A stretch of DNA of 64,000 bases, taken from assembly GCA_964631145.1 (NCBI GenBank), contig CAZVXT010000001.1, positions 319,361-383,360 of the forward strand. Reading direction: 5' to 3'. A program made the position numbers and the translations under genes. How positions within the stretch are numbered: the first letter of the stretch is position 1; each line of letters opens with the position of its first letter. Shown here in pieces: positions 33,894 through 54,167 of this stretch. The notes below the pieces were generated by a model. The model saw only the letters and a program-made list of their open reading frames with translations. It was not told the origin of the DNA and made no database searches. The stretch is from an uncultured Candidatus Saccharibacteria bacterium (GTDB taxonomy: Bacteria; Patescibacteriota; Doudnabacteria; UBA920).

Positions 33894-35372
33894 ATGGATA
33901 AAAAATTAAACATTGTTATCATAGGTTCTGGATTCGGAGGACTGTCTTCTGCTGCGCTGCTTGCTAAAGATGGACATAAGGTTACAGTTTTAGAAAAAAA
34001 TGATATGCCAGGAGGAAGAGCTAGGGTTTGGAAAAAGGATGGATTTGTTTTTGATATGGGTCCATCTTGGTACATGATGCCAGAAATTTTTGATAATTAT
34101 TTTGCAAAATTTAACAAAAAAACTTCTGATTATTATTCCATTAAGAGGCTTGATCCTTCATACAGAGTTTTTTTTGGTAAAGATGATTTTGTAGATATAC
34201 CAACTGATGTAAATAAAACTAAAGCTTTATTTGAAAGTATTGAAGCAGGTAGTGGTCAAAAGTTGCAAGAATATTTGGATCAAGCTAAATATCAATATGA
34301 GGTTTCGATGAAGGAATTTATTTATAAAGATTATAATTCTATTTTCGATCTTTTTAATTGGCGAATGCTTTCTGAGGGACGCAAATTGCATGTATTTGAT
34401 ACATTGGCTAAATTTACTCGTAGATATTTTAAGAGTGAAAAGCTTCGCAAAATTTTAGAGTATAGTATGGTATTTCTGGGTGGCGCTCCTAATAATACTC
34501 CGGCAATATATTCTGTTATTAACCATGCGGATTTGAATTTGGGTGTTTGGTATCCGATGGGTGGTTTTGGAAAAGTAGTAGAATCTTTTGTAAAGTTAGG
34601 CGATCAATTTGGGGTGAAGTATATTTATAACAGCCCTGTGACTGACTTCGAATATAAAGATAATAAAATTGTTTCTGTAAAATGTGGTGATCGTTTTTAT
34701 GATGCAGATGTGGTCATAAATAATGCTGATTATTATCACATGGACCAGCAGCTTTTAGATCCTAAATTTAGAGATTATTCTCCAACTTATTGGGGCAAAA
34801 GAACTGTCGCTCCATCTGCATTTATTTTGTATGTCGGGTTAAATAAAAAGTTAAAAAATATTGATCACCATACTTTATTTTTAGATGAAGATTGGGTAGA
34901 ACACTTTAACACTATATTTAGTAATCCTGACTGGCCTCAGCACCCTTCGTATTATGTTTGCTCCCCGTCAGTTTCGGATCCGTCAGTAGCTCCGGAAGGT
35001 TATGAAAATTTGTTCTTCTTGGCACCTATTGCCTCTGGATTAGAAGATAACGAAGAAATACATAAACACTTAAAAGAAAATATTTATAGCAGATTCGAAA
35101 ATATTACAGGTCAAAATATTAGAGATAGTATAGTAGTAGAAAGAATTTTTTCTGGGCAAGATTTTACAGAAAGCTATAATGCATTTAAAGGAACTGGTTT
35201 GAGTTTGGCTCATACATTGATGCAGACTGCATATTTTCGTCCGAGAATGAGATCAAAAAAACTCTCTAATCTTTATCATGTTGGGCATTATACTCAACCC
35301 GGTGTGGGGGTTCCTATGGTCGTTATTTCTGGAGAAATAGTAGCTAATAAAATTTTGAATGAACAAAAATAA
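33894..35372 (+). CDS. crtI: phytoene desaturase family FAD-dependent oxidoreductase (CrtI/CrtN-like)
   Basis: Rossmann IVIIGSGFGGLSSA, GGRARVWKKDGFVFDMGPSW, and C-terminal VGHYTQPGVGVPMVVISGEIVAN. Confidence 0.85.
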   Translation: MDKKLNIVIIGSGFGGLSSAALLAKDGHKVTVLEKNDMPGGRARVWKKDGFVFDMGPSWYMMPEIFDNYFAKFNKKTSDYYSIKRLDPSYRVFFGKDDFVDIPTDVNKTKALFESIEAGSGQKLQEYLDQAKYQYEVSMKEFIYKDYNSIFDLFNWRMLSEGRKLHVFDTLAKFTRRYFKSEKLRKILEYSMVFLGGAPNNTPAIYSVINHADLNLGVWYPMGGFGKVVESFVKLGDQFGVKYIYNSPVTDFEYKDNKIVSVKCGDRFYDADVVINNADYYHMDQQLLDPKFRDYSPTYWGKRTVAPSAFILYVGLNKKLKNIDHHTLFLDEDWVEHFNTIFSNPDWPQHPSYYVCSPSVSDPSVAPEGYENLFFLAPIASGLEDNEEIHKHLKENIYSRFENITGQNIRDSIVVERIFSGQDFTESYNAFKGTGLSLAHTLMQTAYFRPRMRSKKLSNLYHVGHYTQPGVGVPMVVISGEIVANKILNEQK

Positions 35373-36189
35373 CTACGCTCGCAGTATTTTTAAAAAAAGC
35401 AGCACAACCTTTTTTATATCTACATTATTTTTTCCTCGTGATAAACAAAATGATGTATTTGATTTGTATGCATTTGTAAGAATATTTGATAATTTTGTAG
35501 ATACAATTCCTCAGCAGTCAGATGATTATTATTCTTTAAAGAAGCACTATTATCAATCTTTGGCATCAGGTCATTGTGAGAATCAAATTATAAATAATTT
35601 TATAAATTTACAAAACCATTATAAGTTTGATCAACCTTGGATAGATGCATTTTTTGTTTCCATGGAAATGGATCTTAAAGATTATAAGTACCAACATTTC
35701 TCCGATACAGAAAAATATATGTTTGGATCAGCTGAAGTAGTTGGTTTAATGATGGTAAAAATTTTAGATTTATCTGAGCAATCATATTTATACGCACAGT
35801 TATTAGGAAAAGCTTTTCAGTACATGAATATGATTAGAGATATTGCAGAAGATCAAACATTTGGTAGAACTTATATTCCACTTGATATTTGCTTGCAGTA
35901 CGGTCTATCAGATTTATCATATATAACGGCACAGCACAATCAAACTGGTTTTGTAAAATTAATCAGGCAAGAAATAACTAGATATTATAGTATTGTTGAA
36001 GAAGCGGAAAAAGGGTTTAAGTTTATTCCTAATAACTATCTGGTTGCGATAAAAACTGCAGTAGACTTATTTAATATGACTATGAATAAGATTTATAAAG
36101 ATCCAATGATCGTTTATAAGACAAAAGTTAAGCCAACAAAATTGCAGGCAACTGCATATGGGATTAAAAATTATATTACGCATGCATAA
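35359..36189 (+). CDS. squalene/phytoene synthase family protein (CrtB/CrtM-like)
   Basis: Asp-rich motifs YAFVRIFDNFVD and NMIRDIAEDQTFGRTYIP. Confidence 0.8.
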   Translation: MNKNNYARSIFKKSSTTFFISTLFFPRDKQNDVFDLYAFVRIFDNFVDTIPQQSDDYYSLKKHYYQSLASGHCENQIINNFINLQNHYKFDQPWIDAFFVSMEMDLKDYKYQHFSDTEKYMFGSAEVVGLMMVKILDLSEQSYLYAQLLGKAFQYMNMIRDIAEDQTFGRTYIPLDICLQYGLSDLSYITAQHNQTGFVKLIRQEITRYYSIVEEAEKGFKFIPNNYLVAIKTAVDLFNMTMNKIYKDPMIVYKTKVKPTKLQATAYGIKNYITHA

Positions 36190-37237
36190 ATTTTTTGAAA
36201 ATAATAAACTCAAATTAGCCAAAAAAATTGATACAGTCATAACTGGAGATATGGCAAAGTGGGCTAAAATTAATCTATGGGCAAATAATTCATTGCCTTT
36301 ATTAGCAGAGTTTTCTAAACGGGGGAAATTAATAAGAGGCTTATTAGTTTTATTAGCTGCTCAAGAGGGAACAAAAACAAGTCCCGCAGCTTTGGATATT
36401 GCTTCTTGTATAGAAATTATGCATTCTAGTATTTTGGTGCATGATGATATTATGGATCGAGATCTTTTGAGAAGAGGGAGTCCAACTTTACATGCTTACT
36501 TTGCTGATAGATCTGTTAGTAAGCTTGGTAAGGAATCTCTTCATCATGGAGAAAGTTTGGCGAGTTGCATTGCAATCATTGGTTATTTTATTGCAATGGG
36601 TAGATTTTCTAAAATCAAAGATAAAGATCAAAAAGATTTATTAATCAATCTATATTCAGAAGAGATGGCTTTATTGGGTATGGCTCAGATGTCCGATGTG
36701 ACTTTAGCAGAGGATGATAAGGCTTCAGAGTCAGATGTGTTAAAAGTTTATGAGCAAAAGACTGGTAGATATACATTCGGGCTTCCGCTTTTGTCAGGGT
36801 TTATCTTGGCAGGAAAATATTCAAAAAGACTGCATAAGCAAGTGTTGGAAATGTCTATTCATCTTGGGATAATTTTTCAATTAAAAGATGATATGTTGGG
36901 TATATTTGGAGATTCTAATCAAACAGGTAAGTCTGTGGGTGGTGACATTAGAGAACGAAAAAAGACATTGCTGTATTTTGAGCTTATAAAAGCAAGTACC
37001 AACTTAGAAAAGTCTAAATTATTAAGTTTGTATAACAGTGGCAAACCTTTAAGCGAAATCAATCAAAAATTTGTTTATAGTCTTTTTAAAAAATATGATA
37101 TTGAAAAAAAAGCTGAAGCAAGATTGGACTTTGAATATCAAAAAGTAAACAAATTTTTACCTTCGCTTCCATTTTCTAAAATAGGGGAAGAAGCTTTTAA
37201 AGATCTTGTTAAATATTTATTAACTCGTAGTAAATAA
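36158..37237 (+). CDS. polyprenyl diphosphate synthase (GGPP/FPP synthase family)
   Basis: Two DDxxD motifs, ILVHDDIMDRD and FQLKDDMLGIFGD. Confidence 0.82.
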   Translation: MGLKIILRMHKFFENNKLKLAKKIDTVITGDMAKWAKINLWANNSLPLLAEFSKRGKLIRGLLVLLAAQEGTKTSPAALDIASCIEIMHSSILVHDDIMDRDLLRRGSPTLHAYFADRSVSKLGKESLHHGESLASCIAIIGYFIAMGRFSKIKDKDQKDLLINLYSEEMALLGMAQMSDVTLAEDDKASESDVLKVYEQKTGRYTFGLPLLSGFILAGKYSKRLHKQVLEMSIHLGIIFQLKDDMLGIFGDSNQTGKSVGGDIRERKKTLLYFELIKASTNLEKSKLLSLYNSGKPLSEINQKFVYSLFKKYDIEKKAEARLDFEYQKVNKFLPSLPFSKIGEEAFKDLVKYLLTRSK

Positions 37238-38073
37238 TGAATTTAAGTACATTTATAAAAATTTCCAGACCGAGATTTTGGTTATATAGTGCTGGGACTT
37301 TCTGGGTCGGGGCGATAGCAGGAGCTACTTACTTATCAGATTTATATGATTTTAGGCTGCTACTTTTTTTGGCATATTTTTTATTACCTGCAAATTTATT
37401 TATTTACGGAGTTAATGATTTGGCTGACGGAGATACTGATCAATATAATGATAAGAAAAATGTTCAAGAGCATTTACTTAAGCAAACAGAGCGTAGATTT
37501 TTGATTTTAACTGTTGTTCTATCTTTGCTATTAGGATTTGTTGTGATATATTTTTCTCCAAATTTATTAACCCAACAATTAATTTTCATATTTCTATTTT
37601 TAGCTTTTTGGTATAGTGTCCCACCATTAAGATTTAAAGCTAAGCCTATCGTAGACGCATTGAGCAATATTCATTATGCAGTAATTGGTTTTGCATCTTA
37701 TGCTTATTTTACTAATCATCTTCCCCCATGGTGGAGTATTATTGCGGCGCTTCTGTGGACTGCTGCCATGCAAATATATTCTGCAATTCCAGATATTCAA
37801 AGCGACAAACAGGCAAAATTGTATACAACAGCGATTTGGTTAGGAGAAAAATACTCCATGTATATTTGTTTAATTTTTTGGCTGACATGTAGTATCTTAT
37901 TGTATATAAATTTTTCAACTCTTTTATCTTTGTTATCTTTGTTGTATCCAGTTTATATTATTTGGCAGTTGGTAAAAAAAATTCCCATCAAACAAGTTTA
38001 CTGGTTTTATCCTTACATTAATGCCATCATGGGTTTCGTGTTATTTTGGTATTTGGTCTTCCAAAAAATATAA
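37237..38073 (+). CDS. UbiA family aromatic/isoprenoid prenyltransferase
   Basis: NDLADGDTDQ (NDxxDxxxD), nine TM helices. Confidence 0.75.
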   Translation: MNLSTFIKISRPRFWLYSAGTFWVGAIAGATYLSDLYDFRLLLFLAYFLLPANLFIYGVNDLADGDTDQYNDKKNVQEHLLKQTERRFLILTVVLSLLLGFVVIYFSPNLLTQQLIFIFLFLAFWYSVPPLRFKAKPIVDALSNIHYAVIGFASYAYFTNHLPPWWSIIAALLWTAAMQIYSAIPDIQSDKQAKLYTTAIWLGEKYSMYICLIFWLTCSILLYINFSTLLSLLSLLYPVYIIWQLVKKIPIKQVYWFYPYINAIMGFVLFWYLVFQKI

Positions 38074-38818: not shown

Positions 38819-39148
38819 ATGGCAATCGAAGTATATCAATCGTTGCGCGTCATATCGATAGCGTTTGCATTGCAAACACTATTGTCTCTGTTGTTAGTGT
38901 CTATGACTTTAGTCTTAGCTTTTGGTTTGGGTGTATTTAGGAATATGGTTTTGCCTTCTATTTACTCATTAATAAAATATTCAATATTAAACTTCGCAGG
39001 TTTTTTATTTGCTGCAGTTATAATTTTGATGTTTAAAATTATGTGCTACATAGATGAGGGCAATTATATTTATTTAGGATCATTTTTATTCTTTTTTAAT
39101 CCAATAGTTATGATGTTTTTTTATCTTTATAACTATAAAAAATTATAG
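38819..39148 (+). CDS. hypothetical small membrane protein
   Basis: 109 aa with three TM segments. Confidence 0.5.
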   Translation: MAIEVYQSLRVISIAFALQTLLSLLLVSMTLVLAFGLGVFRNMVLPSIYSLIKYSILNFAGFLFAAVIILMFKIMCYIDEGNYIYLGSFLFFFNPIVMMFFYLYNYKKL

Positions 39149-39859: not shown

Positions 39860-39910
39860 AAGCACTTTGCATAATGCATTGATGCATGAATTTTATTTAA
39901 TTTCATAAAA

Positions 39911-39945
39911 ATAAAAAAGCAAGTTTTTAACTTGCTTTAAATTTA
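39911..39945. terminator. bidirectional terminator
   Basis: Stem AAAGCAAGTT/AACTTGCTTT between convergent genes. Confidence 0.55.
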
Positions 39946-40353
39946 TTTAAGCCTTTTTGCGGCTTCGCTTTCTCTAACCAATTGTTTAATTTCTCCGATT
40001 AGGTTAATTTCATCTTGATTAAAAAAACTTTCTTTATTTTCTACCTCATCAAAGATTTGAATGAGAAGTTTAAATGCTTGATTGGAGAGGTTGTTTCTCT
40101 TGGCATGATTTATATTATAAAATTTAATATATCCCTTCACATATATGATTTGCCTGTCAATTATTGTGCGTGCAGTGATGGCTTTTTTTCTCCAATTTGA
40201 TCCTTTTTGTCGAACCATATCTTGATCTGTTAGTTGCGCCTGAATTTTAGAGCTTTCTCCTTGAAGCTTAATTAGCATTATTTCTGCTTCTTCTATATTA
40301 TTTATTGGTTGTATTCCTAGATTTTTATCTGGATCTGGATATTGTATGGACAT
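39943..40353 (-). CDS. hypothetical protein
   Basis: 136 aa. GGAGG lies upstream. Confidence 0.55.
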   Translation of the reverse strand: MSIQYPDPDKNLGIQPINNIEEAEIMLIKLQGESSKIQAQLTDQDMVRQKGSNWRKKAITARTIIDRQIIYVKGYIKFYNINHAKRNNLSNQAFKLLIQIFDEVENKESFFNQDEINLIGEIKQLVRESEAAKRLK

Positions 40354-40489
40354 ATTTCCTCCGAATATATTTTTTGTTCACTCCTTTTACTACAAAGGAG
40401 TGAACTGTGTAATATATCAATAATTTTGTTCTCTGTAAAGCATAAAAAAATCGGCTAAGATATGGAGGTCTTAGCCGAAAAATCAAAAG

Positions 40490-41434
40490 TTAACTTTTTT
40501 TAGAAAAACCAGCCGCTTGTAAAGCAGCACCTAAACCGTTAATCGCTGGTCCGGTATATGCTTTGCCATTCAGGGTTTTCCTTTTTCTCGCTACCGAGGC
40601 AGGCTTGCCTGGAGAAGGAAGTGGAACCGACGTAGTGGAAATTTTCTGCTCTACCTTCAAAACTGATTTTGGTTTCGGCTTTGTAGTCTTTGCAGTTTCA
40701 GTTTTTTTGGTTTGGTTACCTTTCAACTTATCAAGTTGTTGTTTGGAGCCTAATGTTTTTACCTTTGTTTTGTTTTCAACTTGTGGTTGAAACAAATAAT
40801 CAAAGGCATTAGTTGCAACGTAGCCGAATCTGTCTAACATAACTTCCTCAAACCATTTAATGGTTTTGGTTGTTGGATTGTTCGACAATATGCGTGTGAC
40901 AAAAATTTCTTCCGGGTCGTCTTCATTCGGTTTTTTATAACAAATGAAGATTTCGGCACCGGAGAACATAGTTACTTTTCTATCCTCATCCAATTTTACA
41001 GGATTTGGAATATATCTATTGTGCGGTGGAATCTTAAAGATTTCGCCTTTTTCACAACTGAATGGTGTAAATTCCTTTAATTTGTTTTGGGGAATTGTCG
41101 TTTCGCCGATGATTTCTAACAATTTATTGTCAGAAACAATTGCCGGAAAAGCAACGATTTTGGTCCGAAGTTCAGACATAAAGACATCCAGACGAACATG
41201 ATCGCCGCGTCTGCCGTTTTGCGGCAAGTTTACAACCTTGACTGTTTCGCCAAAAGTTATTTCAACTTGTCTTTGACCGGGAACTTTGTTAAATTTCAGT
41301 TCCGGCATTTGCGGGTCATTGTTTGGGCGGATCGAGGTTTGCTTGAGACCCATTAAAGTAATGATTAATTCGTCGGTTAATACGAAGCTAGCGTCTGCTT
41401 TTTTGTAAAAACTATTCGGTTTATTGGTATTCAT
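40490..41434 (-). CDS. hypothetical protein with a Lys/Thr-rich disordered C-terminus
   Basis: 314-aa ORF. Confidence 0.55.
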   Translation of the reverse strand: MNTNKPNSFYKKADASFVLTDELIITLMGLKQTSIRPNNDPQMPELKFNKVPGQRQVEITFGETVKVVNLPQNGRRGDHVRLDVFMSELRTKIVAFPAIVSDNKLLEIIGETTIPQNKLKEFTPFSCEKGEIFKIPPHNRYIPNPVKLDEDRKVTMFSGAEIFICYKKPNEDDPEEIFVTRILSNNPTTKTIKWFEEVMLDRFGYVATNAFDYLFQPQVENKTKVKTLGSKQQLDKLKGNQTKKTETAKTTKPKPKSVLKVEQKISTTSVPLPSPGKPASVARKRKTLNGKAYTGPAINGLGAALQAAGFSKKS

Positions 41435-41867
41435 ATTTTTGTTTTTGCCAAAACTATTTGCCTTGGCTATTCTCCTTCATTTTTTATATATTATTTAGAT
41501 CCGCCATGGCGGTTTGGCAAAATTTCTCCTGCCAGCAAAAACGCTAATTTGCTGTTAGCAGCTTCACAGGCAGGGGAATATAGCTAATAAAGAATAAAGT
41601 CAAAATATGAATTTAGTTAACTTTTGATTTGTAAAAGAACTTATTAAGCTAAATTAGGTTCAAATATATAACTTAAGCATAATCATAGCTTAACAAAATA
41701 GTATATCATAATTTGATAATTTTGTCAATACTTGCAATTATATGAGTATTTGTTATTATTAATTCAAATTCATTAGAAGCCCCGCGCAAGCGAAGAATTA
41801 CCGACATTTGCTCGAATATATGGGAATTACACCTTAAGGCTTCAAGGTAGTACCTTATATCGAAACT

Positions 41868-41900
41868 AAAGACCTGACTCTTTAGTCAGTTTTATTTTTT
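41868..41900 (+). terminator. intrinsic terminator inside the long region upstream of rpsL
   Basis: Stem CTGACT-TTT-AGTCAG followed by TTTTATTTTTT. Confidence 0.5.
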
Positions 41901-41981
41901 ATTAATAACGACGTCGGCGTTAAATTAAAGAAGATTTTTAAGGTTTACTTTAAAAAGCTTTTAAATCAGAAAGGCTTAATT

Positions 41982-42401
41982 GTGCCAACAATTAATCAAT
42001 TAGTGCGAAAGCCTAGAAAGCCGTTGATTGCTAAAAGCAAATCACCAGCCATGCTTCGCAGGGTCAATTTGATCAAAAATAAAGCCCTCAACATCCCAGG
42101 TTCTCCATTTGTTCGTGGTGTATGTTTGAAGGTTTATACAACTACTCCAAAAAAGCCAAACTCGGCTTTACGTAAAGTAGCTAAAGTAAAGTTAACCAAT
42201 GGTATGGAAGTATTAGCTTATATTCCAGGTATTGGTCACAACTTGCAAGAACACAGTGTGGTACTTATCCGTGGTGGACGTGTAAAAGATTTGCCAGGTG
42301 TACGTTATCACATAGTTAGAGGTAAACTAGATACCTTGGGCGTTGCGGATCGAAAGCGCTCTAGAAGTAAGTATGGCGCAAAACGCCCTAGTCAAGCGTA
42401 A
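41982..42401 (+). CDS. rpsL: 30S ribosomal protein S12 (GTG start)
   Basis: [11 protein letters not shown]... with [10 protein letters not shown] and the rest of the S12 signature. The GTG at 41982 follows GAAAGG. Confidence 0.95.
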
Positions 42402-42586
42402 TTTAATTTTTTGAAAATTTCTTTGTCAGAATCTCCGCTACTCATTCGTCGTACCTTTTCAGTACGACTCATTCGCTGCTCGATTCTTTCGCGAACTTTT
42501 CTAAAAAATTTAATTACCTTAGATACGAATATTTTTCCAATCTAGTTTTTAAATAAAACTATTTTGAATTCAGAAAGGAAACTCTC
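42402..42586 (+). repeat. structured spacer element (copy D) related to the S10-operon hairpin repeats
   Basis: It shares the TTTTTGA...CTTTGT left tail and the ...GGAAACTC right tail with those copies. The core hairpin is AGAATC...GTCGTAC-CTTTTCA-GTACGAC...GATTCT with an internal ACTCATTCG direct repeat. It fills an unusually long S12-S7 spacer. Confidence 0.5.
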
Positions 42587-43090
42587 ATGCCACGTAGAGC
42601 AAGAAGTTTTGAAAAACGCGTACCAAATCCAGATCCAAAATTTGGAAATGTAAAGTATGCAAAATTTGTAAATTATTTAATGGAACGCGGTAAGAAAACT
42701 GTCGCACAAACCATCTTTTATTCTGCCTTAGATATAGTTTCAGAAAAAATGAAAGATGCAGAAATTAGCGATAGTCGCCAAGTTTTTGATATTGCATTAA
42801 AAAATGCTTCTCCATTGATGGAAATCAAAGGACGTCGTATTGGTGGAAGCAACTATCAAGTTCCTATGGAAGTTGTAGAACCACGTCGCAGTAGTCTTGG
42901 GATGAAGTGGTTAATTGCAGCAGCGAGAGCTCGCAAAGGTGCGCCTATGGCAACCAAGTTGGCTCAAGAAATTGTTGATGCGTTTAATAAAATTGGAAAT
43001 GCTGTAAAGAAGCGCGATGATACTCATCGTATGGCTGAAGCAAACAAAGCATTCGCTCACTTTGCAAGATTTACTAGCAAGAGAAAATAA
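42587..43090 (+). CDS. rpsG: 30S ribosomal protein S7
   Basis: MPRRARSFEKR... with the S7 signature. Confidence 0.95.
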   Translation: MPRRARSFEKRVPNPDPKFGNVKYAKFVNYLMERGKKTVAQTIFYSALDIVSEKMKDAEISDSRQVFDIALKNASPLMEIKGRRIGGSNYQVPMEVVEPRRSSLGMKWLIAAARARKGAPMATKLAQEIVDAFNKIGNAVKKRDDTHRMAEANKAFAHFARFTSKRK

Positions 43091-43121
43091 ATTTGAACTT
43101 TTAAAATTTGGGAAAATAAAT

Positions 43122-43151
43122 AGAGTTACTAAGTTTTTTCTTAGTAACTCT
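43122..43151 (-). terminator. terminator hairpin for the antisense small-gene pair
   Basis: Perfect 12-bp stem AGAGTTACTAAG/CTTAGTAACTCT with a U6 loop. A U-rich tract follows on the minus strand. Confidence 0.5.
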
Positions 43152-43158
43152 CGTATGG

Positions 43159-43368
43159 TTAAGGTTTAATTAGTCCTATGGAAACTATTACAACCTTGAG
43201 TTTATTATTTTTACTTTTTATCTTGAAATCGTTAATAACTTTTTCAGATACCGCATTTATTTTTTCTGTTGTATCCAGATAATCAGTGGTTTCCATAATA
43301 ACTCCTTGCAAATCAAACTGCATTTTAAAAAAAGAATAAGCCAAGACTGTAAATAAGTAGATTTTCAT
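43159..43368 (-). CDS. hypothetical small protein with a hydrophobic N-terminus
   Basis: 69 aa. GGAGGG lies upstream. It overlaps the upstream gene by ATGA. Confidence 0.5.
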   Translation of the reverse strand: MKIYLFTVLAYSFFKMQFDLQGVIMETTDYLDTTEKINAVSEKVINDFKIKSKNNKLKVVIVSIGLIKP

Positions 43369-43607
43369 TTTTTCCCTCCAGTATTTTTCTTAAACTCTGT
43401 ATAGCCCCAAGCAATTAATCCTAATAATATAGCTAGCCCTAATCCTCTTTTGGAAAAGATAAAACTATAAAACCAAGCATCAATTGCATCGCCAACCGTA
43501 TGGGTGGACGTTGTTTCCATTATTTGTTGTAGCCCGCTGTAAAGCAGAACATAAAACACTAGAACCATAAGAAGTCCTACAAACAGATTGAATATAAAAT
43601 TATTCAT
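43365..43607 (-). CDS. hypothetical two-TM small membrane protein
   Basis: 80 aa. GGAGGAAA lies upstream. It is antisense within the rpsG-fusA spacer. Confidence 0.55.
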   Translation of the reverse strand: MNNFIFNLFVGLLMVLVFYVLLYSGLQQIMETTSTHTVGDAIDAWFYSFIFSKRGLGLAILLGLIAWGYTEFKKNTGGKK

Positions 43608-43679
43608 AAATTTCCTCCAAGTTTTAAATTTATCATATTATATCATAAAAAATTAAAAAGTCAAGTATAATTAAATTAT

Positions 43680-45803
43680 ATGCCACGAGAATATCCAATA
43701 GACGTAACCCGTAATATCGGGATTATTGCTCACATTGATGCCGGCAAAACTACAACTACCGAAGGTATTTTGTACAACACTGGTATGATTCACAAAATTG
43801 GTGCAGTGCACGAAGGTGAAACTGTTACCGACTGGATGGAACAAGAACGCGAACGCGGAATTACAATTACTTCTGCTGCTGTAACTTGTTACTGGAAGCC
43901 TCAATATATAAAAATTGAAGGCGATAAACAGTATAAAATTAATATTATTGATACCCCTGGTCACGTAGACTTTACTGTAGAAGTAGAACGTAGTTTGCGC
44001 GTCCTTGATGGTGCAATCACAGTTTTTGACGGAAAAATGGGTGTAGAGCCTCAGTCCGAAACAGTGTGGCGTCAAGCTGATAAATACGGTGTGCCTCGCA
44101 TGTGTTTTATCAACAAGATTAACCAAACAGGTGGAGATTTTTATAAGTCTCTAGATTCTATTCATACTCGTTTAACTAAAAATGCATTTCCTGTACAGCT
44201 TCCAATTGGTTTTGAAAAAGATGTTATTGGCGTAGTAGATTTGGTTACAATGAAGTCTTACACTTATAACGACTTTACAGATAAAGAATTTACAATCGGT
44301 GATGTGCCTGCAGATATGGTTGAGAAAGCAAATAAGTATCGCCAAGAATTGATCGAAAAAGTTGTTGAGTTTGACGAAGCTATGATGGAAAAATATTTAG
44401 GTGGTGAAGCGTTAAGCGAAACAGAATTGTTAGAACTTATTCGTAAAGCTACCCGTAGCGGTGAATTTTATCCAGTATTTGGTGGTGATGGTCGCGGTAT
44501 TATTGTTCGTACTTTACTTGATGCAGTTACTAACTTTTTACCTTCTCCAACAGATAAAGGACCTGTTAAAGGACATAATCCAAAAACAGGTGAAGAATTA
44601 CTTCGCAATCCTGATGATAACGAGCCGTTTACTGCTCTTGCATTCAAGATCGCGACCGATCCTTTTGTAGGTCGTCTTGCTTTTTTCCGTGTTTACTCTG
44701 GAACTCTTCAAGCAGGAAGCTATGTACTTAATGCTAGAACAGGTAACAAAGAACGCGTGGGACGTATTGTACGTATGCGTGCAGATCAACGCGACGAAGT
44801 AAAAGAAGTTTTTGCTGGTGATATTTGTGCGTTAGTTGGTCCAAAAGACACCATTACTGCTGATACTCTTTGTTCAGAAACTTCACCATTAGAATTAGAA
44901 AAAATTAAATTCGCAGAACCAGTTATTAGTATGGCTATCGAGCCAAAGACTAAAGCTGATCAAGAAAAACTTGGTATTGCTCTTCAAAAACTTGCTGAAG
45001 AAGATCCAACCTTTAAGGTTACTTCAGATCATGAAACTGGCGAAACTATTATAGCTGGTATGGGTGAACTTCACTTAGAAATTTTGGTAGACCGCATGAA
45101 GCGCGAATTTAAAGTAGAAGCAAACGTAGGTAAGCCACAAGTTGCTTACAAAGAAACCTTTAAGAAAATTGCTAAAGCAGAACACAAGTTTATCCGCCAA
45201 TCTGGTGGTCGTGGACAATACGGTCACGTTTATCTTCGTGTTGAACCTCTTGAGCAAGGAAAGGGTTATGAATTCTTGGATGAAATTGTTGGTGGTGTTA
45301 TTCCAAAAGAATATATTAAACCAATTGATAAAGGTATTCAGGAATCAGCTGCAAATGGTGTAATCGCTGGTTACCCGCTTGTAGACTTTAGAGCTGCTGT
45401 GTATGATGGTAGTTATCACGAAGTTGACTCTTCTGAAATGGCTTTCAAAATTGCTGCATCTAAAGCTTTGCAGGATGCTGTAAAAGCAGGTGATCCAATC
45501 TTGCTAGAGCCTGTGATGAAAGTTGTTGTTACTACACCTGAAGCAAACATGGGTGATGTAATTGGTGATTTAAACAGTAAGCGCGCTAAAGTCCAAGATA
45601 TGGAAGATATTACTGGACGTAAAGTAGTTACTGCTTTTGTACCACTTGCAGAAATGTTTGGTTACGCAACACAATTGCGTAGCATGACCCAAGGTCAGGC
45701 AAGTAGTATTATGGAATTTGATCATTATGAAGAAGTTCCAAAAAATGTTGCTGCTGGTATCATTGAAGCACGTGCTGGTATTAACGCCCGCAAAGGACAA
45801 TAG
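43680..45803 (+). CDS. fusA: elongation factor G
   Basis: G domain [17 protein letters not shown] and NKIN, plus the EF-G domains II-V. Confidence 0.95.
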
Positions 45804-45812
45804 AAATTTAGA

Positions 45813-45841
45813 AAACCACTCCGTAATAGGGTGGTTTTTTT
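45813..45841 (+). terminator. intrinsic terminator after fusA
   Basis: Stem ACCACTCC...GGGTGGT followed by T7. Confidence 0.6.
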
Positions 45842-45913
45842 ACTTGAATGAAGAGATTGACATTTTGTTGAATTAAATTATAATACACAAGCTAAATAGC
45901 AAAGGGGGATTTT

Positions 45914-46609
45914 ATGGAAATATATTCTAAAGGGTTAGAAATTGAACAATGCGTTGTTTATTTAGAGTCTAAAAAAATTAGAGTTAATCCTGAATTAAAA
46001 GAAGATGCCAGTTTTATTAAAAATAGTTTAACTCGAAAAGTAGTTATAAATATAATTATTGGGTTGCTTATTACTGGGATCGCAGGATATTGGAATCAAT
46101 ATTCAATACCTTATTTTTTAGTTGTGTGGTTAACGCAAGTCATTTTTACATCAATTATTTTTCAACCGATTGTCGAAAAAAAACTTAAAAAATATAGGAT
46201 AGTTGAAATGTATGAAGTTTTATCCTTACCGCTCATGAATGCTATTTTAGAGCATAATAAAAGGTTGAATAATTTGATTGATTCTATAAACTTAAGTTTA
46301 ACTTTTGATCAAACTCAAGATATGTCTGCTACTAAACAATTAATTAATCAAATCAATCAAGGTAGAGAAGTTATAGATAAAAATTTTGATAAACTATCTA
46401 GAATTAACGAAAGATATTCTTCTATTAGAAATTTAGATAAAAATACTATCGTCGATACTATGTTTGAGCTACCATTGTTAGTGGTTAATAATGAGGTTTA
46501 TTCTCATGAAGATAACGAGCTTAATTTATTAGTGGAAACTATTAATCAAGAAGTTGATCTTGTAGTAAAAAATGAAATATCTGCTCCTAAGCAGTTAAAA
46601 AGTCTTTAG
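45914..46609 (+). CDS. hypothetical membrane protein (two TM segments plus a coiled-coil region)
   Basis: GGGGGA lies upstream. Confidence 0.55.
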   Translation: MEIYSKGLEIEQCVVYLESKKIRVNPELKEDASFIKNSLTRKVVINIIIGLLITGIAGYWNQYSIPYFLVVWLTQVIFTSIIFQPIVEKKLKKYRIVEMYEVLSLPLMNAILEHNKRLNNLIDSINLSLTFDQTQDMSATKQLINQINQGREVIDKNFDKLSRINERYSSIRNLDKNTIVDTMFELPLLVVNNEVYSHEDNELNLLVETINQEVDLVVKNEISAPKQLKSL

Positions 46610-46717
46610 AAATAAAAAATGGACTAACAGAAATGTTGGTCTTTTATTATACTAGACAAACTTCTTATTTTTATATATAATGTTTTATCAGTTTAGCTGA
46701 TAAAAAGGAGGACTTTT

Positions 46718-47266
46718 ATGTCAAAAGATACCGAGTTAGAAGATGTAAAAAAAGAATGGGACGCGGCTGGTTTCTTGATAAAAACAGTAGTAGTCTTAGT
46801 AGTCTTAGTAGTTTTAGTTGTTTTATCTCTAGTAGGATTATTATTATTTCGCATAACTTGTGTTACCTTCGTGGAAAACTATGAGCTTGGCTATATGTAT
46901 GATTCTACTAATGGTGAAACCAGGTTACTAAACCGCACCGGTTATATAACGCATTATCCATTGGTTAACTCAGTTCATACAATTGACTTGCGTCCGATGC
47001 AAGTATGTATGAATGCAAATGCCAGAGTTTTAAATTGTAAATTAGTTCGATTTAATCCTGCCGGCTTTGAAGATTTTATTGCTCGTCATGGTAGAAATAA
47101 TTATGATGGCGGCAATTGTTCTACCGGAGGTAGTTCATCTAGTGGAAGCTGCGGTAATTTAAATGAAATACTAAGAAGTTATGCTTTTGAGGCAAATCCT
47201 CAATATTCGTTTTTTACTTTTGAAAACCCTAGTGGTGCTGATGTAAAAGCAAATGGTGGAAAATGA
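46718..47266 (+). CDS. hypothetical membrane-anchored protein, paralog 1
   Basis: AAGGAGG lies upstream. It has an N-terminal TM anchor and shares a Cys-containing domain of about 110 aa with the next gene. Confidence 0.6.
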   Translation: MSKDTELEDVKKEWDAAGFLIKTVVVLVVLVVLVVLSLVGLLLFRITCVTFVENYELGYMYDSTNGETRLLNRTGYITHYPLVNSVHTIDLRPMQVCMNANARVLNCKLVRFNPAGFEDFIARHGRNNYDGGNCSTGGSSSSGSCGNLNEILRSYAFEANPQYSFFTFENPSGADVKANGGK

Positions 47267-47712
47267 AAAGAAATAAAATATTAAAATATGTCGCATATAC
47301 TTTTTTAGTGATTTTAATTTTAACATTTGCTTATAAGCTTTTCTTTCACCATCAAGATGTTTACGAAGTAGGTTTGGCAAGAAATTTATTTACCGGCGAA
47401 ACATACTTACTTGATAAGCCAGGTTTTTACAGAAACTATCCTTGGGTCTGGGTTGCAATTGCAGAAACTAGACCAACTAGGGTTTGTGTTACAAGCACTG
47501 CAAGGTCTTATAATTGCAAGTTGGCACAATTTAAACCTGAACATTATCAAGAATTTTTGGAAACTGAAGGGTGGAGGTTTTATTGGCTATCTAATAGAAT
47601 TTCAATTAACTTTGGATATGATGATGAATATAGAGGTTTCAAAGATATTCTAAGAGGATATGCTTTTGGTAATAAAAAGTATAATTTTATAGAGGTGTCT
47701 GACTCTCCATAA
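47263..47712 (+). CDS. hypothetical membrane-anchored protein, paralog 2
   Basis: Alignable with 46718..47266 over YE.G...GET.LL...YP.V...P..VC....R..NCKL..F.P...F...ILR.YAF. It overlaps that gene's stop. Confidence 0.6.
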   Translation: MKRNKILKYVAYTFLVILILTFAYKLFFHHQDVYEVGLARNLFTGETYLLDKPGFYRNYPWVWVAIAETRPTRVCVTSTARSYNCKLAQFKPEHYQEFLETEGWRFYWLSNRISINFGYDDEYRGFKDILRGYAFGNKKYNFIEVSDSP

Positions 47713-47745
47713 AAAATAGCGTGCTAATAATTAGCACGCTTTTAT
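47711..47745. terminator. bidirectional terminator
   Basis: 11-bp palindrome AGCGTGCTAAT-A-ATTAGCACGCT. Confidence 0.6.
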
Positions 47746-48225
47746 TTAATAATTTTTTTGTGGGGGGAGAACTATATCTCCGATTTTTATTATCCCACTT
47801 GTTAATACGTGGGCGGTTAAGCCTCCACAGTCAAAAAATTCTTCAGCAAAATTTACTGGTTTGTTTGATAGCTTACTTGGTCTGGTGCAAGGTTCGCAGT
47901 ATTTGTATCCAAAAAATTTAACATCACCGATAGTAAATTCTTTGTTAATACAACGCATTAATTCTATTCCTTCTATCAATAAATTTCTTCTTGTTTCGTA
48001 AAACCAGAAAGTTTTATTTTTAAAGAAGTGTGCGTTCATTAAGGTTACTTGCCCGTTCCAGGTGCCTGTTTTTTTAGCATTAAGCTTGTTAAAACTACCA
48101 ATCCCTGCTGCATAGCGATCCCCTTGAAGTCCTTTACCTTCCATGCAATAAACTTCCAGTAATGCTTGCATTGGCGCTCCTGCTTTAGGAGCGATGCAAA
48201 TTTGCTTTAACGTTCCTTTAATCAT
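47746..48225 (-). CDS. MOSC domain-containing protein
   Basis: GDRYAAG, QVTLMN, NLLIEGIEL and the Cys-containing C-terminal block (CEPCTRP). Confidence 0.6.
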   Translation of the reverse strand: MIKGTLKQICIAPKAGAPMQALLEVYCMEGKGLQGDRYAAGIGSFNKLNAKKTGTWNGQVTLMNAHFFKNKTFWFYETRRNLLIEGIELMRCINKEFTIGDVKFFGYKYCEPCTRPSKLSNKPVNFAEEFFDCGGLTAHVLTSGIIKIGDIVLPPQKNY

Positions 48226-48553
48226 TATGATCCTCCAAAGTATTGTTATCAGCTTCGGGTTTTTCTAAGACAATAAAGCAGTGTGGGCAATTTTGGATTT
48301 CGTAAACTTTTTTATTGCTTGTTCGAATAGTGATAAATAACCATTTGCTTTTGTAATATATGACCTCTCCAGCAAAAAGTTGCTTATCCGATTCTCCATA
48401 CCAAATGCTAATATTATCATGACTTCTTGCTTTAAAAACTGTGCATTCATGAGTTATAAAATTATTTTCAGAATCTTTTATAATATCCGACGCATCTATA
48501 TCATCTAGCAATTTCATACGAACGTTTTGCATATTTCTATTCTCCTTTTTCAA
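48218..48553 (-). CDS. hypothetical protein
   Basis: 111-aa ORF. Confidence 0.5.
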   Translation of the reverse strand: MKKENRNMQNVRMKLLDDIDASDIIKDSENNFITHECTVFKARSHDNISIWYGESDKQLFAGEVIYYKSKWLFITIRTSNKKVYEIQNCPHCFIVLEKPEADNNTLEDHND

Positions 48554-48562
48554 GATTTATAT

Positions 48563-48919
48563 TTAAACTCGTTGTGTTTCTTTGGATAATACTTTAGTTT
48601 TTACTTTTGTATAAATCCACACATCAGCTTCAAAATCCATTTCATATACTCTATAGCTGTTTTTATCGCTTTGTAATTTCCATTTTGAATTTTCAAAATT
48701 ATGTTTCTTCCACCAGGGTAAACAATTTTCACCATTAACAATTTTATTTAATTGTTTTCTGGCAAAATATTTTGTTGGATATGGACCATGTGTTTTGGAT
48801 GCTATCGGTTTTTTTGTCTCAGCGCCTTTGCATGGTTCATCTAATAAGACATCTACATATTCTTCACGAACGTAATATTCGGTAGTAACTAGAGCTACTG
48901 TGGTAACAATTTTCTGCAT
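48563..48919 (-). CDS. hypothetical protein
   Basis: 118-aa ORF. GGAGG lies upstream. Confidence 0.5.
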   Translation of the reverse strand: MQKIVTTVALVTTEYYVREEYVDVLLDEPCKGAETKKPIASKTHGPYPTKYFARKQLNKIVNGENCLPWWKKHNFENSKWKLQSDKNSYRVYEMDFEADVWIYTKVKTKVLSKETQRV

Positions 48920-49043
48920 AAAACCTCCTTTTTGAATAACTTAATTTATCATCTTTAGCAGCATTAGTCAACGCGGTGTTTACCATGTTTTAAAAAATAT
49001 TTATTATTTAAATAATAAAAAACCAGCTAAATGCTGGTATATT

Positions 49044-49379
49044 TTAGTATAAACTAGAGTTTGGAGAGAAAGGCAGAAAATTAGATTTACCATCCATAAC
49101 ATAAGTAGTTTTAACAATCTCTTTTATATTAATAGATGTTTTAATAATTACGGTATCACCGTCTTGGCTTTGTGATAACATGGTTCCGTTTTTAATTCCG
49201 ATAGTAACAGTAACAGTGTTGTCTGTTCTAGAGACTTCATCTATTTTATAGCAATCAATAGGTTTGTCTTGATCTTTTAAATATATTTTACAAACGATTT
49301 CATGGTTACCTTGCTTGTTGGTTTTGTTTATATCTACAGTTGGTGTATTTGTTTGAATTTCTTCTAGTATATTTAACAT
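49044..49379 (-). CDS. hypothetical protein
   Basis: Start at MLNILEE (complement of 49377-49379) after GGAGGATAAT. Confidence 0.5.
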   Translation of the reverse strand: MLNILEEIQTNTPTVDINKTNKQGNHEIVCKIYLKDQDKPIDCYKIDEVSRTDNTVTVTIGIKNGTMLSQSQDGDTVIIKTSINIKEIVKTTYVMDGKSNFLPFSPNSSLY

Positions 49380-49461
49380 ATTATCCTCCTTTAGAAGATA
49401 TAAATTATCATGTATTTGGGTGTTTGTCAAGTGTGACTTTTTTATATTAATTGGTTAATAT

Positions 49462-50070
49462 GTGGTTATGAGCTTACAAGAATTATTAGATTTAACCAAA
49501 AAATTTGGACAAACAGTAGTGGTTTCTGAAAGCGGGGATGTTAAAGCGATTTTGTTATCCCCAGAAAAATACATAGATTTTGCTAAAGATAAAAAGGTAG
49601 AACGAGCTCCTTTAAATAATAATCAAAGTGCTAATTATGATTCCGCATTGGGACAAAAGCAAGGCATGCCTGTTCCTACAGATTTAGAACCCGAAGAGGA
49701 TGTTATTGCAGAACATGAACAACAAGATTTGCCAGTTGGTTTAGATTTTGATATTTCTGATAATGATTTTAATAAAGGTTTGTTTAAGAGTGTTGGTCTA
49801 AATAATGATGAAAATCTCGAAACTTTTAATGTTAATGATTCTAGTGAAATTGAAGAAAATATAGTAGACAGAGCCTCTTCCGCAGAACCGCCAAAACCAT
49901 TAAGTAGTTTATTAACTAAAAGAGCTGAAAGTTTATTTATGGACAAACCTTTTGGCAGGGTAAATACTCCGGAGTTTGATATGCGCAGCGAAGTAGTAGA
50001 TCCAAATTTTGGTAAGCCAGCTAATGTAGATGATGATGAAGAAATCCAAACCAGCTTTGAGAATATTTAA
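49462..50070 (+). CDS. protein with a Phd/YefM-like N-terminal domain and a long acidic disordered tail
   Basis: LQELLDLTKKFGQTVVVSESGDVKAILLSPEKY resembles the YefM antitoxin fold. It is followed by a D/E-rich tail of about 150 aa. Confidence 0.45.
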   Translation: MVMSLQELLDLTKKFGQTVVVSESGDVKAILLSPEKYIDFAKDKKVERAPLNNNQSANYDSALGQKQGMPVPTDLEPEEDVIAEHEQQDLPVGLDFDISDNDFNKGLFKSVGLNNDENLETFNVNDSSEIEENIVDRASSAEPPKPLSSLLTKRAESLFMDKPFGRVNTPEFDMRSEVVDPNFGKPANVDDDEEIQTSFENI

Positions 50071-50148
50071 TATATGATTATAAAAAGATTCTAGACATCC
50101 TAGGATCTTTTGGTTATAATGATCTATAAAATTACTTTAGGAGGTAGT

Positions 50149-50589
50149 ATGGAAAAAATCAAAGAAGTAATTAATTCTGTTTCTAATTTTTTTGAAAAAG
50201 GGGATAGTTACCCAGAAATGTTCTTGGCACTTAAAGAGTTTTTGGGTTTAGACGTTATTCATCTCAACATACTTGCAGAGACAGCTTCATATTTACTGTT
50301 GCAAGATTTTTTTGGAGAAAAATGCGTGCTGTTTACTTATAACAGGCTTTCTAATGCTCCAGAAAAATATCAAATGTTTTGTTTTGATGCTAGTGGTAGG
50401 CTACGGCAATTTTTTAGTCAAAATAATAAAAAAATTTTTAGCAAAAATGATTTTATAGGATGGCTAGGTGTTGAAATGCTTTCTGCGGCACAAGATTTTG
50501 TAAAAGGGGTTATAAAAAACTCCCAGCTACTAGACTCTAATGCAGAATTTGCTTTAGAAATTATTGATAATGTTTCTGATAGTTATTAA
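50149..50589 (+). CDS. hypothetical protein
   Basis: ATG at 50149 after AGGAGG. The track ORF begins at an upstream ATG at 50110. Confidence 0.5.
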   Translation: MEKIKEVINSVSNFFEKGDSYPEMFLALKEFLGLDVIHLNILAETASYLLLQDFFGEKCVLFTYNRLSNAPEKYQMFCFDASGRLRQFFSQNNKKIFSKNDFIGWLGVEMLSAAQDFVKGVIKNSQLLDSNAEFALEIIDNVSDSY

Positions 50590-50595
50590 ACAAAA

Positions 50596-50624
50596 AGCAC
50601 TAGAAATTTCTAGTGCTGTTTTTA
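50596..50624 (+). terminator. intrinsic terminator
   Basis: Palindrome AGCACTAGAAATTTCTAGTGCT followed by T5. Confidence 0.6.
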
Positions 50625-50641
50625 TTAAAAACTTAATTTAT

Positions 50642-51145
50642 CTAAATTGTTGCGCCCATCTTTTGGAGCTTGCTTTCTAAAACCAAAATTTCTAGTGCTG
50701 TTTTGGATGGTGTCTTATCTTTTAAATTTTCTTTGCTTCTTTTATATTTTAGCTGCTTTGTGTATTTTGCAATTACATTTATGAAATCATCTATCCATAA
50801 TTTTGAATCCACTAGGTATTTAAAATTTATATCTTCGTCTTTTATATAGAATAAGCCGTTCCAGTTTACTTCAAGAATATCGGTAAGTTTTGTATCTGAT
50901 CCTAAACGAGTTGATATGGTTAATGTGCAATTACCAAACATGCTTTGTCCTTCATCAAAATTAAAATTAAACCCGGCTATTGCAGCTTCGGTTTTTTTGT
51001 GAATATGGCACGAGTGTATTTGGTTATATGTTTGCACACCGAGCTTTTCTTTTAATAAAAAAGCAAAATTCATAATTTGCTCATTTTGCTTGGTTTGCAA
51101 TTTTAGTGTTCTTTTTAAGTTTGAAATATGGGTATTATCTTTCAT
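50642..51145 (-). CDS. hypothetical protein
   Basis: 167 aa. GGAGG lies upstream. Confidence 0.5.
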   Translation of the reverse strand: MKDNTHISNLKRTLKLQTKQNEQIMNFAFLLKEKLGVQTYNQIHSCHIHKKTEAAIAGFNFNFDEGQSMFGNCTLTISTRLGSDTKLTDILEVNWNGLFYIKDEDINFKYLVDSKLWIDDFINVIAKYTKQLKYKRSKENLKDKTPSKTALEILVLESKLQKMGATI

Positions 51146-51195
51146 AATTTACCTCCATAAAATTTTCCTTAGTATATGTTGAGGACAAGGAAAAG

Positions 51196-51495
51196 TCAAA
51201 CAAAAAAACAGTTGGCAGAAACCAACTGTTGTTTGGGAATGAATTGAATGTGTTTATTTGCTAAGTCAAAAATTTGCTGTTTTAAACTGTAGCAAAGATA
51301 GATTACTTTTGGAGTATTAATTGGCTTGTATGAATGTATATTATCTTTAAAAATTGCTGTAGCGATAACGTAATCAGTTACAAACTGCAAAGCATCGCTA
51401 TAATTTTTATGAAAGCTTAAATATTTTACTCCTTGATGATCAATCCAAGTTTGGGCATAAACTGCAACTTTGAATATATTCACATCGTTCTTCAT
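51196..51495 (-). CDS. hypothetical protein
   Basis: Start at MKNDVN (complement of 51493-51495) after AGGAGG. The track ORF extends further upstream. Confidence 0.5.
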   Translation of the reverse strand: MKNDVNIFKVAVYAQTWIDHQGVKYLSFHKNYSDALQFVTDYVIATAIFKDNIHSYKPINTPKVIYLCYSLKQQIFDLANKHIQFIPKQQLVSANCFFV

Positions 51496-51610
51496 AACAT
51501 TACCTCCTTTTTGGCAAGTTACTTCGAGTATACTCTTTTTATAAAAATTTGCAAATAAATTTGTTATAAAATAAAAGGCGGAAGATATATTCTTCCGCAT
51601 TGGTTTAACG

Positions 51611-51982
51611 TTATTTGGAAATTTTTGTGATTGTTAGGTGATCTAGAATATCGCCATCATTGCAATTTGATTGCTCTGTATAAAGCAATGTAATTTTGTC
51701 ATTAACAACCAATCCAAATGTTTCTATTTTTTTTGCATTGCATGGAGCTGGTGAAGTGATTATTGTTCTATTTCCGAAATTATCTTCGAGTATGGTTCTA
51801 ACAATCCATCCCCATTGATTAGTCTGTATATGCTTGACTGTATATACTTTTTGATCAAGTTCTAAAGCTTCTATCTTATGGTCATTATTTGAGCAATTAT
51901 AGTAGCAGGAACACATTATTCCGAAAAATATAATGCCAATAATTATTAGGCTAATTACCGTTTTTGTAATTTTTTCTTTCAT
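51611..51982 (-). CDS. hypothetical lipoprotein-like protein
   Basis: N-terminal hydrophobic segment followed by Cys residues. AGGAGG lies upstream. Confidence 0.5.
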   Translation of the reverse strand: MKEKITKTVISLIIIGIIFFGIMCSCYYNCSNNDHKIEALELDQKVYTVKHIQTNQWGWIVRTILEDNFGNRTIITSPAPCNAKKIETFGLVVNDKITLLYTEQSNCNDGDILDHLTITKISK

Positions 51983-52293
51983 ATTTCCTCCTAAATAAAA
52001 TGATTTTATATCATAAAATATTTTGGACTGGGTGTCAACTTTTCTTGACCTGGCTTTAAAAAAGCTTTAAAATAAGTTGTGATTGGCTCGAAGTTTTCGT
52101 GCCAGTTTTATAAATCATTAATTAGTGGTTGTATTTAGCAAAATTCTCCCTGGATTCCTAAAGCTTCCTATGTTTATAGAGAAGGCGTAGATAAAAAGAG
52201 AAACCCTCCCTCCTTTTCCGTATCGATAGGGAAAGAAGTGAGGGTATCTCGGGATTAGACTAATAAATACAACACCGAAAGGTATTTGCACAA

Positions 52294-53481: not shown

Positions 53482-53514
53482 TATTTAGCACAACATTTCT
53501 TTATAGAAACATTA

Positions 53515-53545
53515 AAACTCTCCTAGCAATAGGAGAGTTTTTTTG
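53515..53545 (+). terminator. intrinsic terminator after tuf
   Basis: 10-bp stem AACTCTCCTA/TAGGAGAGTT followed by T6. Confidence 0.65.
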
Positions 53546-53574
53546 TTGACATAAATCGGTTTTTATCGTATTAT
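53546..53574 (+). promoter_or_regulatory. sigma70-like promoter (TTGACA-17-TATTAT)
   Basis: Sequence match immediately after the tuf terminator. Confidence 0.45.
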
Positions 53575-53595
53575 TGCTTGTTAAATGGAGGTTTT

Positions 53596-54160: not shown

Positions 54161-54167
54161 TGCTTGT

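Follow-up and report, generated by a model that had tools for sequence, protein, structure and literature searches.

In the 64,000-nucleotide (nt) stretch analysed here (hereafter the window), which comes from an uncultured Candidatus Saccharibacteria bacterium (contig CAZVXT010000001.1), the genes for ribosomal protein S7 (rpsG) and EF-G (fusA) are separated by a spacer holding two small open reading frames (ORFs) on the opposite strand, called ORF A and ORF B in the following. The gap measures 589 nt, while the median over 142 such spacers, taken from metagenomes and a range of bacteria, is 40 nt (interquartile range 21-96, 95th percentile 429 nt). An earlier note on this DNA had put the spacer at 590 nt and described it as far longer than normal, which agrees with this measurement.

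A compact minus-strand unit between rpsG and fusA

The two ORFs lie in a unit that begins with a sigma-70-type promoter, a feature absent from the earlier note and found on follow-up (Table 1). Its -35 hexamer begins at a distance of 16 nt from the start codon of fusA, which is on the other strand, and the promoter is one of only two sites in the region 41400-46700 with at least 11 of 12 matches and a perfect TATAAT -10 hexamer; its layout resembles that in one relative (L173). The start of ORF A has the context GGAGGAAATTT-ATG, and the GGAGGAAATTTATG string of its Shine-Dalgarno (SD) sequence also precedes another gene, at 24068. ORF B (GGAGGGAAAAA-ATG) overlaps the end of ORF A by 4 nt (ATGA, 43368-43365), and downstream of it lies an intrinsic terminator, with a hairpin that folds at -15.9 kcal/mol as minus-strand RNA (z = -6.0) and is followed by AUUUAUUUUC. 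The plus-strand side of this hairpin carries no U-tract, having CGUAUGGUU instead; because the U-tract is confined to the minus side, the terminator is expected to act in that direction only. The hairpin (43122-43151) is found only once in the window. Thus, the coupled minus-strand ORFs with their own terminator, the 12-bp stem, the GGAGG sites upstream and the ATGA overlap are all present as the earlier note had described them, and the pair does lie against the message of the str cluster, as a minus-strand unit with its own promoter and terminator in a plus-strand rpsG-fusA context.

No tRNA was found near the unit, and direct and inverted repeats flanking it are at the chance level for AT-rich DNA. 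A 10-nt duplicate, GAAAATAAAT, was considered as a target duplication specific to the cassette and rejected, since it sits in a segment common to a relative. Across the region 41400-46700 no structured RNA matched Rfam at E ≤ 1, and no signal for a plus-strand promoter or a small RNA was seen inside the cassette.

The motif GGAGG occurs 61 times on the two strands of the window, and because about half of these sites lie 4-9 nt ahead of the ATG of a long ORF, it is a good guide to gene starts in this genome. Two well-spaced GGAGG sites, a promoter and a terminator, all in the correct order within 553 nt, form an arrangement that is not due to chance. The coding scores are lower than those of ordinary genes: codon log-odds per codon are 0.064 for ORF A and 0.245 for ORF B (95th percentile of spurious ORFs, 0.13; mean of long genes, 0.40), and 3-periodic Markov scores are -0.066 and +0.063, respectively (mean of ordinary window genes, 0.263). 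The Markov scores of both ORFs exceed those of ~95% of spurious ORFs, yet fall under every typical gene, and the Markov model ranks the annotated frame first of six for each. Membrane proteins in the window also score low, as does the gene at 38819-39148 with a codon score of 0.13. We take ORF A and ORF B to be real genes of atypical composition, suggestive of genes that are young or acquired.

ORF A has two hydrophobic helices (approximately residues 3-29 and 54-70; Kyte-Doolittle 15-residue maximum 3.03), an acidic middle and a lysine-rich C-terminus ending in KKNTGGKK. Its single-sequence AF2 model (pLDDT 79) contains helices at residues 3-32, 38-50 and 53-76. ORF B has a weakly hydrophobic N-terminus and a hydropathy maximum of 1.13, below the level of a transmembrane (TM) segment, and is modelled as one long helix (3-54) with a disordered tail. 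The earlier note had spoken of two membrane-protein genes, a description that suits ORF A and not ORF B. Both products are orphans. When 5.8 billion protein clusters were searched by word index, each of the two matched only itself. A complete HMMER scan over 1.84 billion representatives, made with ORF A only, found no true relative besides itself; one additional match, P0003, was rejected as a repeat-inflated artefact. Pfam, NCBIfam, PHROGs and PADLOC gave nothing significant for either ORF, PDB sequence searches gave no match, Foldseek searches with the AF2 models against BFVD and PDB returned nothing at E ≤ 0.001, and there were no viral relatives among IMG/VR contigs. ORF A resembles neither ORF B nor any other gene found at this junction in the relatives described below. 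The two ORFs share an (L-Q-x-)I-M-E-T-T peptide, encoded by a 14-nt direct repeat (43286-43299 and 43510-43523, 86% identical, 224 nt apart); this is probably chance, although an old tandem duplication may lie behind it.

The same junction in related genomes

The closest relatives by S7 and EF-G carry Saccharibacteria or Patescibacteria labels, the two proteins occur unchanged on a 654-kb NCBI contig, and DNA identical to the unit is present in two Logan assemblies (L001 and L002). In the nearest relative that differs (two ENA contigs, L163/L164), rpsG is identical at 497 of 504 positions (98.6%), with six third-position changes, and the next 31 nt match at 30 of 31 positions, whereas from 43122 onwards identity falls to 46%. 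The junction of this relative contains another hairpin and another minus-strand membrane ORF. The ORFs of the window are absent from close relatives while a spacer is retained, an outcome that the earlier note had named among those refuting its reading and that, as regards conservation, goes against it.

We then compared genomes with EF-G 85-93% identical to that of the window (L165-L173 and the P0060 contig; Table 1). Three of these, with EF-G 91-92% identical, have no insert at all; the others are occupied by differing genes. More distant relatives also have occupied junctions, with unrelated minus-strand genes preceded by GGAGG sites in three (L003, L004, L084) and a plus-strand gene in a fourth (L005). 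Across the lineage, ten junctions carry minus-strand inserts (the window, L163/4, L165, L166/7, L171, L173, the P0060 contig, L003, L004 and L084), two carry plus-strand genes (L172 and L005) and three are empty (L168-L170). The minus orientation is thus found in 10 of 12 occupied slots (one-sided binomial P = 0.019). The inserts span 0.3-0.85 kb and hold one or two small genes, most of the other occupants being single genes and several of them soluble. No pair of slot proteins is similar, none is like ORF A or ORF B and none has a family assignment. What recurs are the signals: near-consensus minus-strand promoters are seen in six of the eight relatives with a readable promoter region, and every readable minus-strand occupant (8 of 9 relatives; the start of the L163 gene and the DNA of the P0060 contig are not included) has an intact ORF with a strong GGAGG- or AAGGAG-type SD sequence. 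The plus-strand occupants look like operon members rather than independent units, that of L172 being packed closely between its neighbours.

Table 1. Features of the rpsG-fusA region of the window, and the same junction in genomes with closely related EF-G
Feature or genome	Position in window, or spacer length	Strand	Description
rpsL	41982-42401	+	185 nt before rpsG
rpsG (ribosomal protein S7)	42587-43090	+	Left core flank; TIGR01029, E = 8.6e-54
Post-rpsG segment	43091-43121		30/31 conserved in L163/L164; left breakpoint at 43122
Intrinsic terminator	43112-43151	-	Perfect 12-bp stem (43151-43122), then ATTTATTTTC (43121-43112)
ORF B	43159-43368	-	69 aa; orphan; start overlaps ORF A stop
SD sequence of ORF B	43375-43379	-	GGAGG(G), within final codons of ORF A
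ORF A	43365-43607	-	80 aa; orphan small membrane protein
SD sequence of ORF A	43614-43618	-	GGAGG, 6 nt ahead of ATG
Promoter, sigma-70 type	43637-43664	-	TTGACT-16-TGaTATAAT; 11/12 matches and extended -10
Promoter, -35 hexamer	43664-43659	-	TTGACT; followed by 16-nt spacer
Promoter, -10 hexamer	43642-43637	-	TATAAT
fusA leader	43665-43679	+	A/T-only, without SD sequence (TATAATTAAATTAT-ATG); right-hand limit of insert
fusA (EF-G)	43680-45803	+	Right core flank; TIGR00484, E = 0, 1046 bits
L165	312 nt	-	Uncalled 49-aa two-TM ORF behind TTGACA-17-TGaTATAAA
L166 / L167	287 nt	-	73-aa acidic gene
L171	360 nt	-	71-aa gene
L173	563 nt	-	143-aa gene behind TTGACT-17-TATAAT
P0060 contig	391 nt	-	93-aa gene
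L172	489 nt	+	151-aa gene, tightly packed (gaps of 4 and 29 nt)
L168	21 nt		Empty
L169	12 nt		Empty
L170	13 nt		Empty

The small membrane ORF of L165 (822-971, minus strand) has an SD sequence, a promoter and a terminator and was missed by the gene caller of its source. Annotators should be warned that small slot genes in these genomes are likely under-annotated. Long rpsG-fusA spacers of unrelated bacteria hold other genes (L144:1418-2005 and L142:1021-1221); judged by eye from these sequences, one looks like an ORF6N/KilA-N-type DNA-binding protein (195 aa) and the other like a VapB-type antitoxin (66 aa).

The means by which fusA is expressed bears on what an antisense insert can do. Despite the heavy use of GGAGG in this genome, fusA has no SD sequence in the window, nor in any of the relatives (L003, L004, L005, L084 and L165-L173), and an AATTA..TTAATTA-like fusA leader is common to all relatives, including those with junctions of 12-21 nt. 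In occupied loci, the best match to a plus-strand promoter upstream of fusA is 9 of 12. A perfect TATAAT, without a -35 hexamer, lies 8 nt before the fusA ATG in the window (8-11 nt when L004 is included), and it is conceivable that the fusA mRNA is leaderless or near-leaderless. Since no convincing plus-strand fusA promoter is seen in any occupied locus, read-through from rpsL-rpsG appears to be the likeliest source of fusA mRNA; for the relatives with 12-21-nt junctions we presume that it must be so.

Origin and role of the insert

Based on these findings, we consider it probable that 43112-43664 is a self-contained, strain-specific accessory operon, located in a hotspot of gene gain and replacement between rpsG and fusA in a Saccharibacteria-like (Patescibacteria) lineage. 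Our best guess is that ORF A and ORF B are a dispensable, envelope-associated accessory pair. We take the ancestral state to be a tight junction, as most bacteria and three members of the clade have it, and the comparison of relatives suggests that small units, complete in themselves, have filled it repeatedly and independently, with refilling even among very closely related genomes. We propose that such cassettes are swapped by homologous recombination in which the flanking genes, being highly conserved, serve as the arms; this would fit the sharp drop in similarity directly beside a nearly identical rpsG. The unit of the window would be transcribed from its own promoter towards rpsG; ORF A would be inserted in the membrane as a helical hairpin, and ORF B, whose output translational coupling would tie to that of ORF A in a fixed proportion, probably acts together with it. 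The minus orientation may prevail because a plus-strand unit ending in a terminator would have a polar effect on fusA, an essential gene, while a minus-strand unit with a one-way terminator would let transcription of rpsL-rpsG pass on to fusA. If read-through supplies fusA, some interference is to be expected from a strong convergent promoter and a complementary mRNA. We regard this interference, through convergent transcription and an RNA duplex with the read-through transcript, as probably a by-product and not the purpose of the unit, because relatives manage without any insert.

Several observations weigh against this interpretation. The coding scores are well under those of ordinary genes of the window, so that translation is read from the SD sequences, the coupling and the frame preference only. 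Only one distinct sequence is at hand for comparison, as neither L001 nor L002 differs from the window. The TATAAT ahead of fusA, if it were part of a leaderless-type promoter of that gene, would undo the argument from read-through. The orientation events are possibly not fully independent, and the recombination swap is deduced from a single breakpoint, the left one.

The low coding scores also suit the view that the ORFs have no function and came in on inserted DNA as young proto-genes or as remnants in decay, their signals being accidental or left over. Homologues are absent among ~15 billion proteins, and T-rich sequence readily yields hydrophobic ORFs. Still, this view would have to explain how a promoter with 11/12 matches and an extended -10, two perfectly spaced GGAGG sites, a coupling by ATGA and a terminator with a 12-bp stem came to lie in the correct order within 553 nt, in a genome where GGAGG followed by ATG marks real starts. 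In addition, each ORF scores best in its annotated frame out of the six, and other membrane proteins of the window, such as that at 38819-39148, score low too. We hold this view to be unlikely.

The earlier note had proposed a holin- or toxin-like cassette. In its fullest form, this would be a membrane-damaging module of a holin-like or toxic ORF A with ORF B as a coupled antidote or partner, persisting as a selfish element for addiction, immunity or abortive infection. The two TM helices and lysine-rich C-terminus of ORF A are in keeping with it, and selfish-element status would also account for the rapid turnover of a strain-specific unit in a hotspot. Class II holins or pinholins, phage lysis proteins with two TM segments (S21, for example), likewise have ~70-80 residues, two hydrophobic helices and a basic C-terminus; however, a small TM protein with a charged C-terminus is a trait common to very many unrelated small membrane proteins, and ORF A has no family match, endolysin, spanin, prophage context or dual-start motif, while its strong constitutive-type promoter lies within a housekeeping cluster. 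The best holin profile, PF07332 (Phage_holin_3_6), reached only E = 0.33 and 11.5 bits against a cutoff of 28.4 bits, and no PHROG holin matched. There is no lysis-cassette context either, as the neighbours are rpsG and fusA and the interval 45914-51600 contains no PHROG-annotated genes; no endolysin, phage or defence gene was found nearby. In its layout, two small genes that share 4 nt (ATGA) and are served by one promoter and one terminator, the pair does resemble many toxin-antitoxin operons of type II and membrane-toxin systems such as GhoT/GhoS, as it does in being strain-specific and in having one small membrane protein, but neither ORF has a detected toxin fold or family or a DNA-binding antitoxin partner in Pfam, NCBIfam, PADLOC or PDB sequences. 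Type I toxins (Hok/Fst/TisB-like) are single-TM proteins of less than ~60 aa, whereas ORF A has 80 aa and two TM segments, and neither an sRNA signal nor an Rfam match accompanies it. With no viral relatives, empty fold searches, other slot occupants that are mostly single and in several cases soluble (so that the slot is not generally a toxin-antitoxin site), and a strong constitutive-looking promoter and SD sequence that would be odd for an unregulated lethal first gene, we give this proposal a low probability.

The other proposal of the earlier note, an antisense regulator of str-operon read-through, can be extended to the view that antisense transcription is itself the functional product. 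Collision or an RNA duplex would then throttle the transcription that reads from rpsL-rpsG into fusA and thereby set the ratio of EF-G to S12/S7, with the ORFs incidental. Across lineages a minus-strand promoter beside fusA and a minus-only terminator beside rpsG recur while the proteins do not, the orientation is biased, and there is neither a convincing fusA promoter nor a plus-strand terminator. Convergent cis-antisense units similarly direct a strong promoter against the intercistronic region of an operon and have a one-way terminator that lets the sense transcript pass; unlike them, the unit described here, known from sequence alone, is clearly built for translation and is not conserved in relatives. 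The insert-free junctions of L168-L170 indicate that the clade needs no such brake, and the strong SD sequences and intact ORFs of the minus-strand relatives point to selection for translation; Rfam offers no structured RNA. A conserved regulatory device is thus unlikely, in view of the three short junctions, the lack of similarity among inserts and the different cassette of the nearest relative, and we find the extended view improbable. What survives of the proposal is plausible interference as a side effect, given the one-way terminator and the lack of a good fusA promoter.

Weak matches of ORF A to PF18895 (E = 0.014, 15.9 bits, residues 5-50) and of ORF B to TrbL_5 (E = 0.089), together with a comparable size and two-helix layout, could suggest that ORF A is a VirB2/TrbC-like pilin of a type IV secretion system, a kind common in Patescibacteria. 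Both matches are below their gathering thresholds (26.6 and 25 bits, respectively), no VirB4/VirB6/VirD4-type genes are among the window proteins scanned and the full HMMER search of ORF A brought up no pilin relatives. Membership of ORF A in PF18895 is effectively refuted, and the pilin explanation is very improbable.

The accessory operon that we favour has its nearest known counterpart in replacement hotspots flanked by core genes and filled with strain-specific orphan genes. Integration and replacement hotspots flanked by conserved core genes are a general concept of horizontal gene transfer in bacterial chromosomes. As in these, unrelated and variable content lies between syntenic core genes, some sites are empty, and breakpoints are sharp beside near-identical flanks. 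Unusual here are the position within the normally contiguous str cluster (rpsL-rpsG-fusA-tuf), the very small inserts and the strong orientation bias against the operon; moreover, no integrase, tRNA or repeats are present at this slot. A full-text literature search found no paper on inserts in rpsG-fusA. We also give a slim chance to a more far-reaching idea, in which the junction would be a dedicated expression slot where promoter-bearing mini-cassettes, captured by recombination between the ultra-conserved flanks, are kept antisense by selection; the slot would act, through convergent transcription, as a tunable, strain-specific brake on EF-G synthesis relative to S12/S7, and also as a nursery of new small, often membrane, proteins.

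The surrounding chromosome and the meaning of the hotspot

The window is ordinary chromosome, with genes for PNPase, aminoacyl-tRNA synthetases, ParB, SHMT, tuf and rpsJ, and no phage, type IV secretion or defence genes were found among the proteins scanned in its 64 kb. The genes rpsL, rpsG, fusA and tuf start at 41982, 42587, 43680 and 52294, all on the plus strand and in the canonical order of the str operon, but their junctions are not tight: the gaps are 185 nt, 589 nt (with the convergent operon inside) and 6.5 kb (~13 genes on both strands).

The rpsL-rpsG spacer of 185 nt is itself unusually long and only 62% identical to that of the near relative L163/L164, compared with 98.6% for rpsG. 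It contains a 7-bp hairpin (GTCGTAC...GTACGAC, 42448-42468), and a hairpin that resembles a terminator, complete with a T-run (CTGACTCTTTAGTCAG TTTTATTTTT, 41874-41889), lies in the expected leader, 93 nt upstream of rpsL. Neither hairpin matches Rfam, and both could be leader or attenuator elements. Almost all genes of the fusA-tuf interval (45804-52293) are without a family match, and only those at 45914-46609 and 49462-50070 reappear in the fetched flanks of relatives. The first of these encodes a membrane protein of 231 aa, with a homologue right after fusA in L171, and is preceded by a 12/12 consensus promoter (TTGACA-16-TATAAT, 45857-45884) directly past the fusA stop codon. The tuf-rpsJ interval (53482-56081, 2.6 kb) holds three further genes of the same sort. 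The interval between Peptidase_M50 and rpsL (39860-41981) is likewise variable, with two minus-strand orphan genes in the window (136 and 314 aa) and, in L166-L172, either nothing or an unrelated gene on the minus or plus strand. The whole str/S10 cluster of this genome is thus loosened by orphan genes at every junction. Further upstream, a run of four genes (33894-38073) encodes a flavin amine-oxidoreductase or phytoene-desaturase-like protein, a squalene/phytoene synthase, a polyprenyl synthetase and a UbiA prenyltransferase; a reduced genome of 654 kb would not be expected to hold such a cluster, of isoprenoid or carotenoid type.

Taken alone, the gene pair is an ordinary orphan accessory operon, and its context is the more useful part. 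What is new is the comparative result, which identifies the rpsG-fusA junction as a hotspot of gene gain in this clade. A gene junction that ranks among the best conserved in bacteria has been broken repeatedly, in a lineage of episymbionts with reduced genomes, by unrelated, strongly promoted and mostly antisense small genes. We suggest that it offers a clean natural system for following the turnover of orphan small genes in Patescibacteria, for learning how essential operons tolerate insertions through orientation and one-way terminators, and for testing whether convergent transcription modulates the expression of EF-G.

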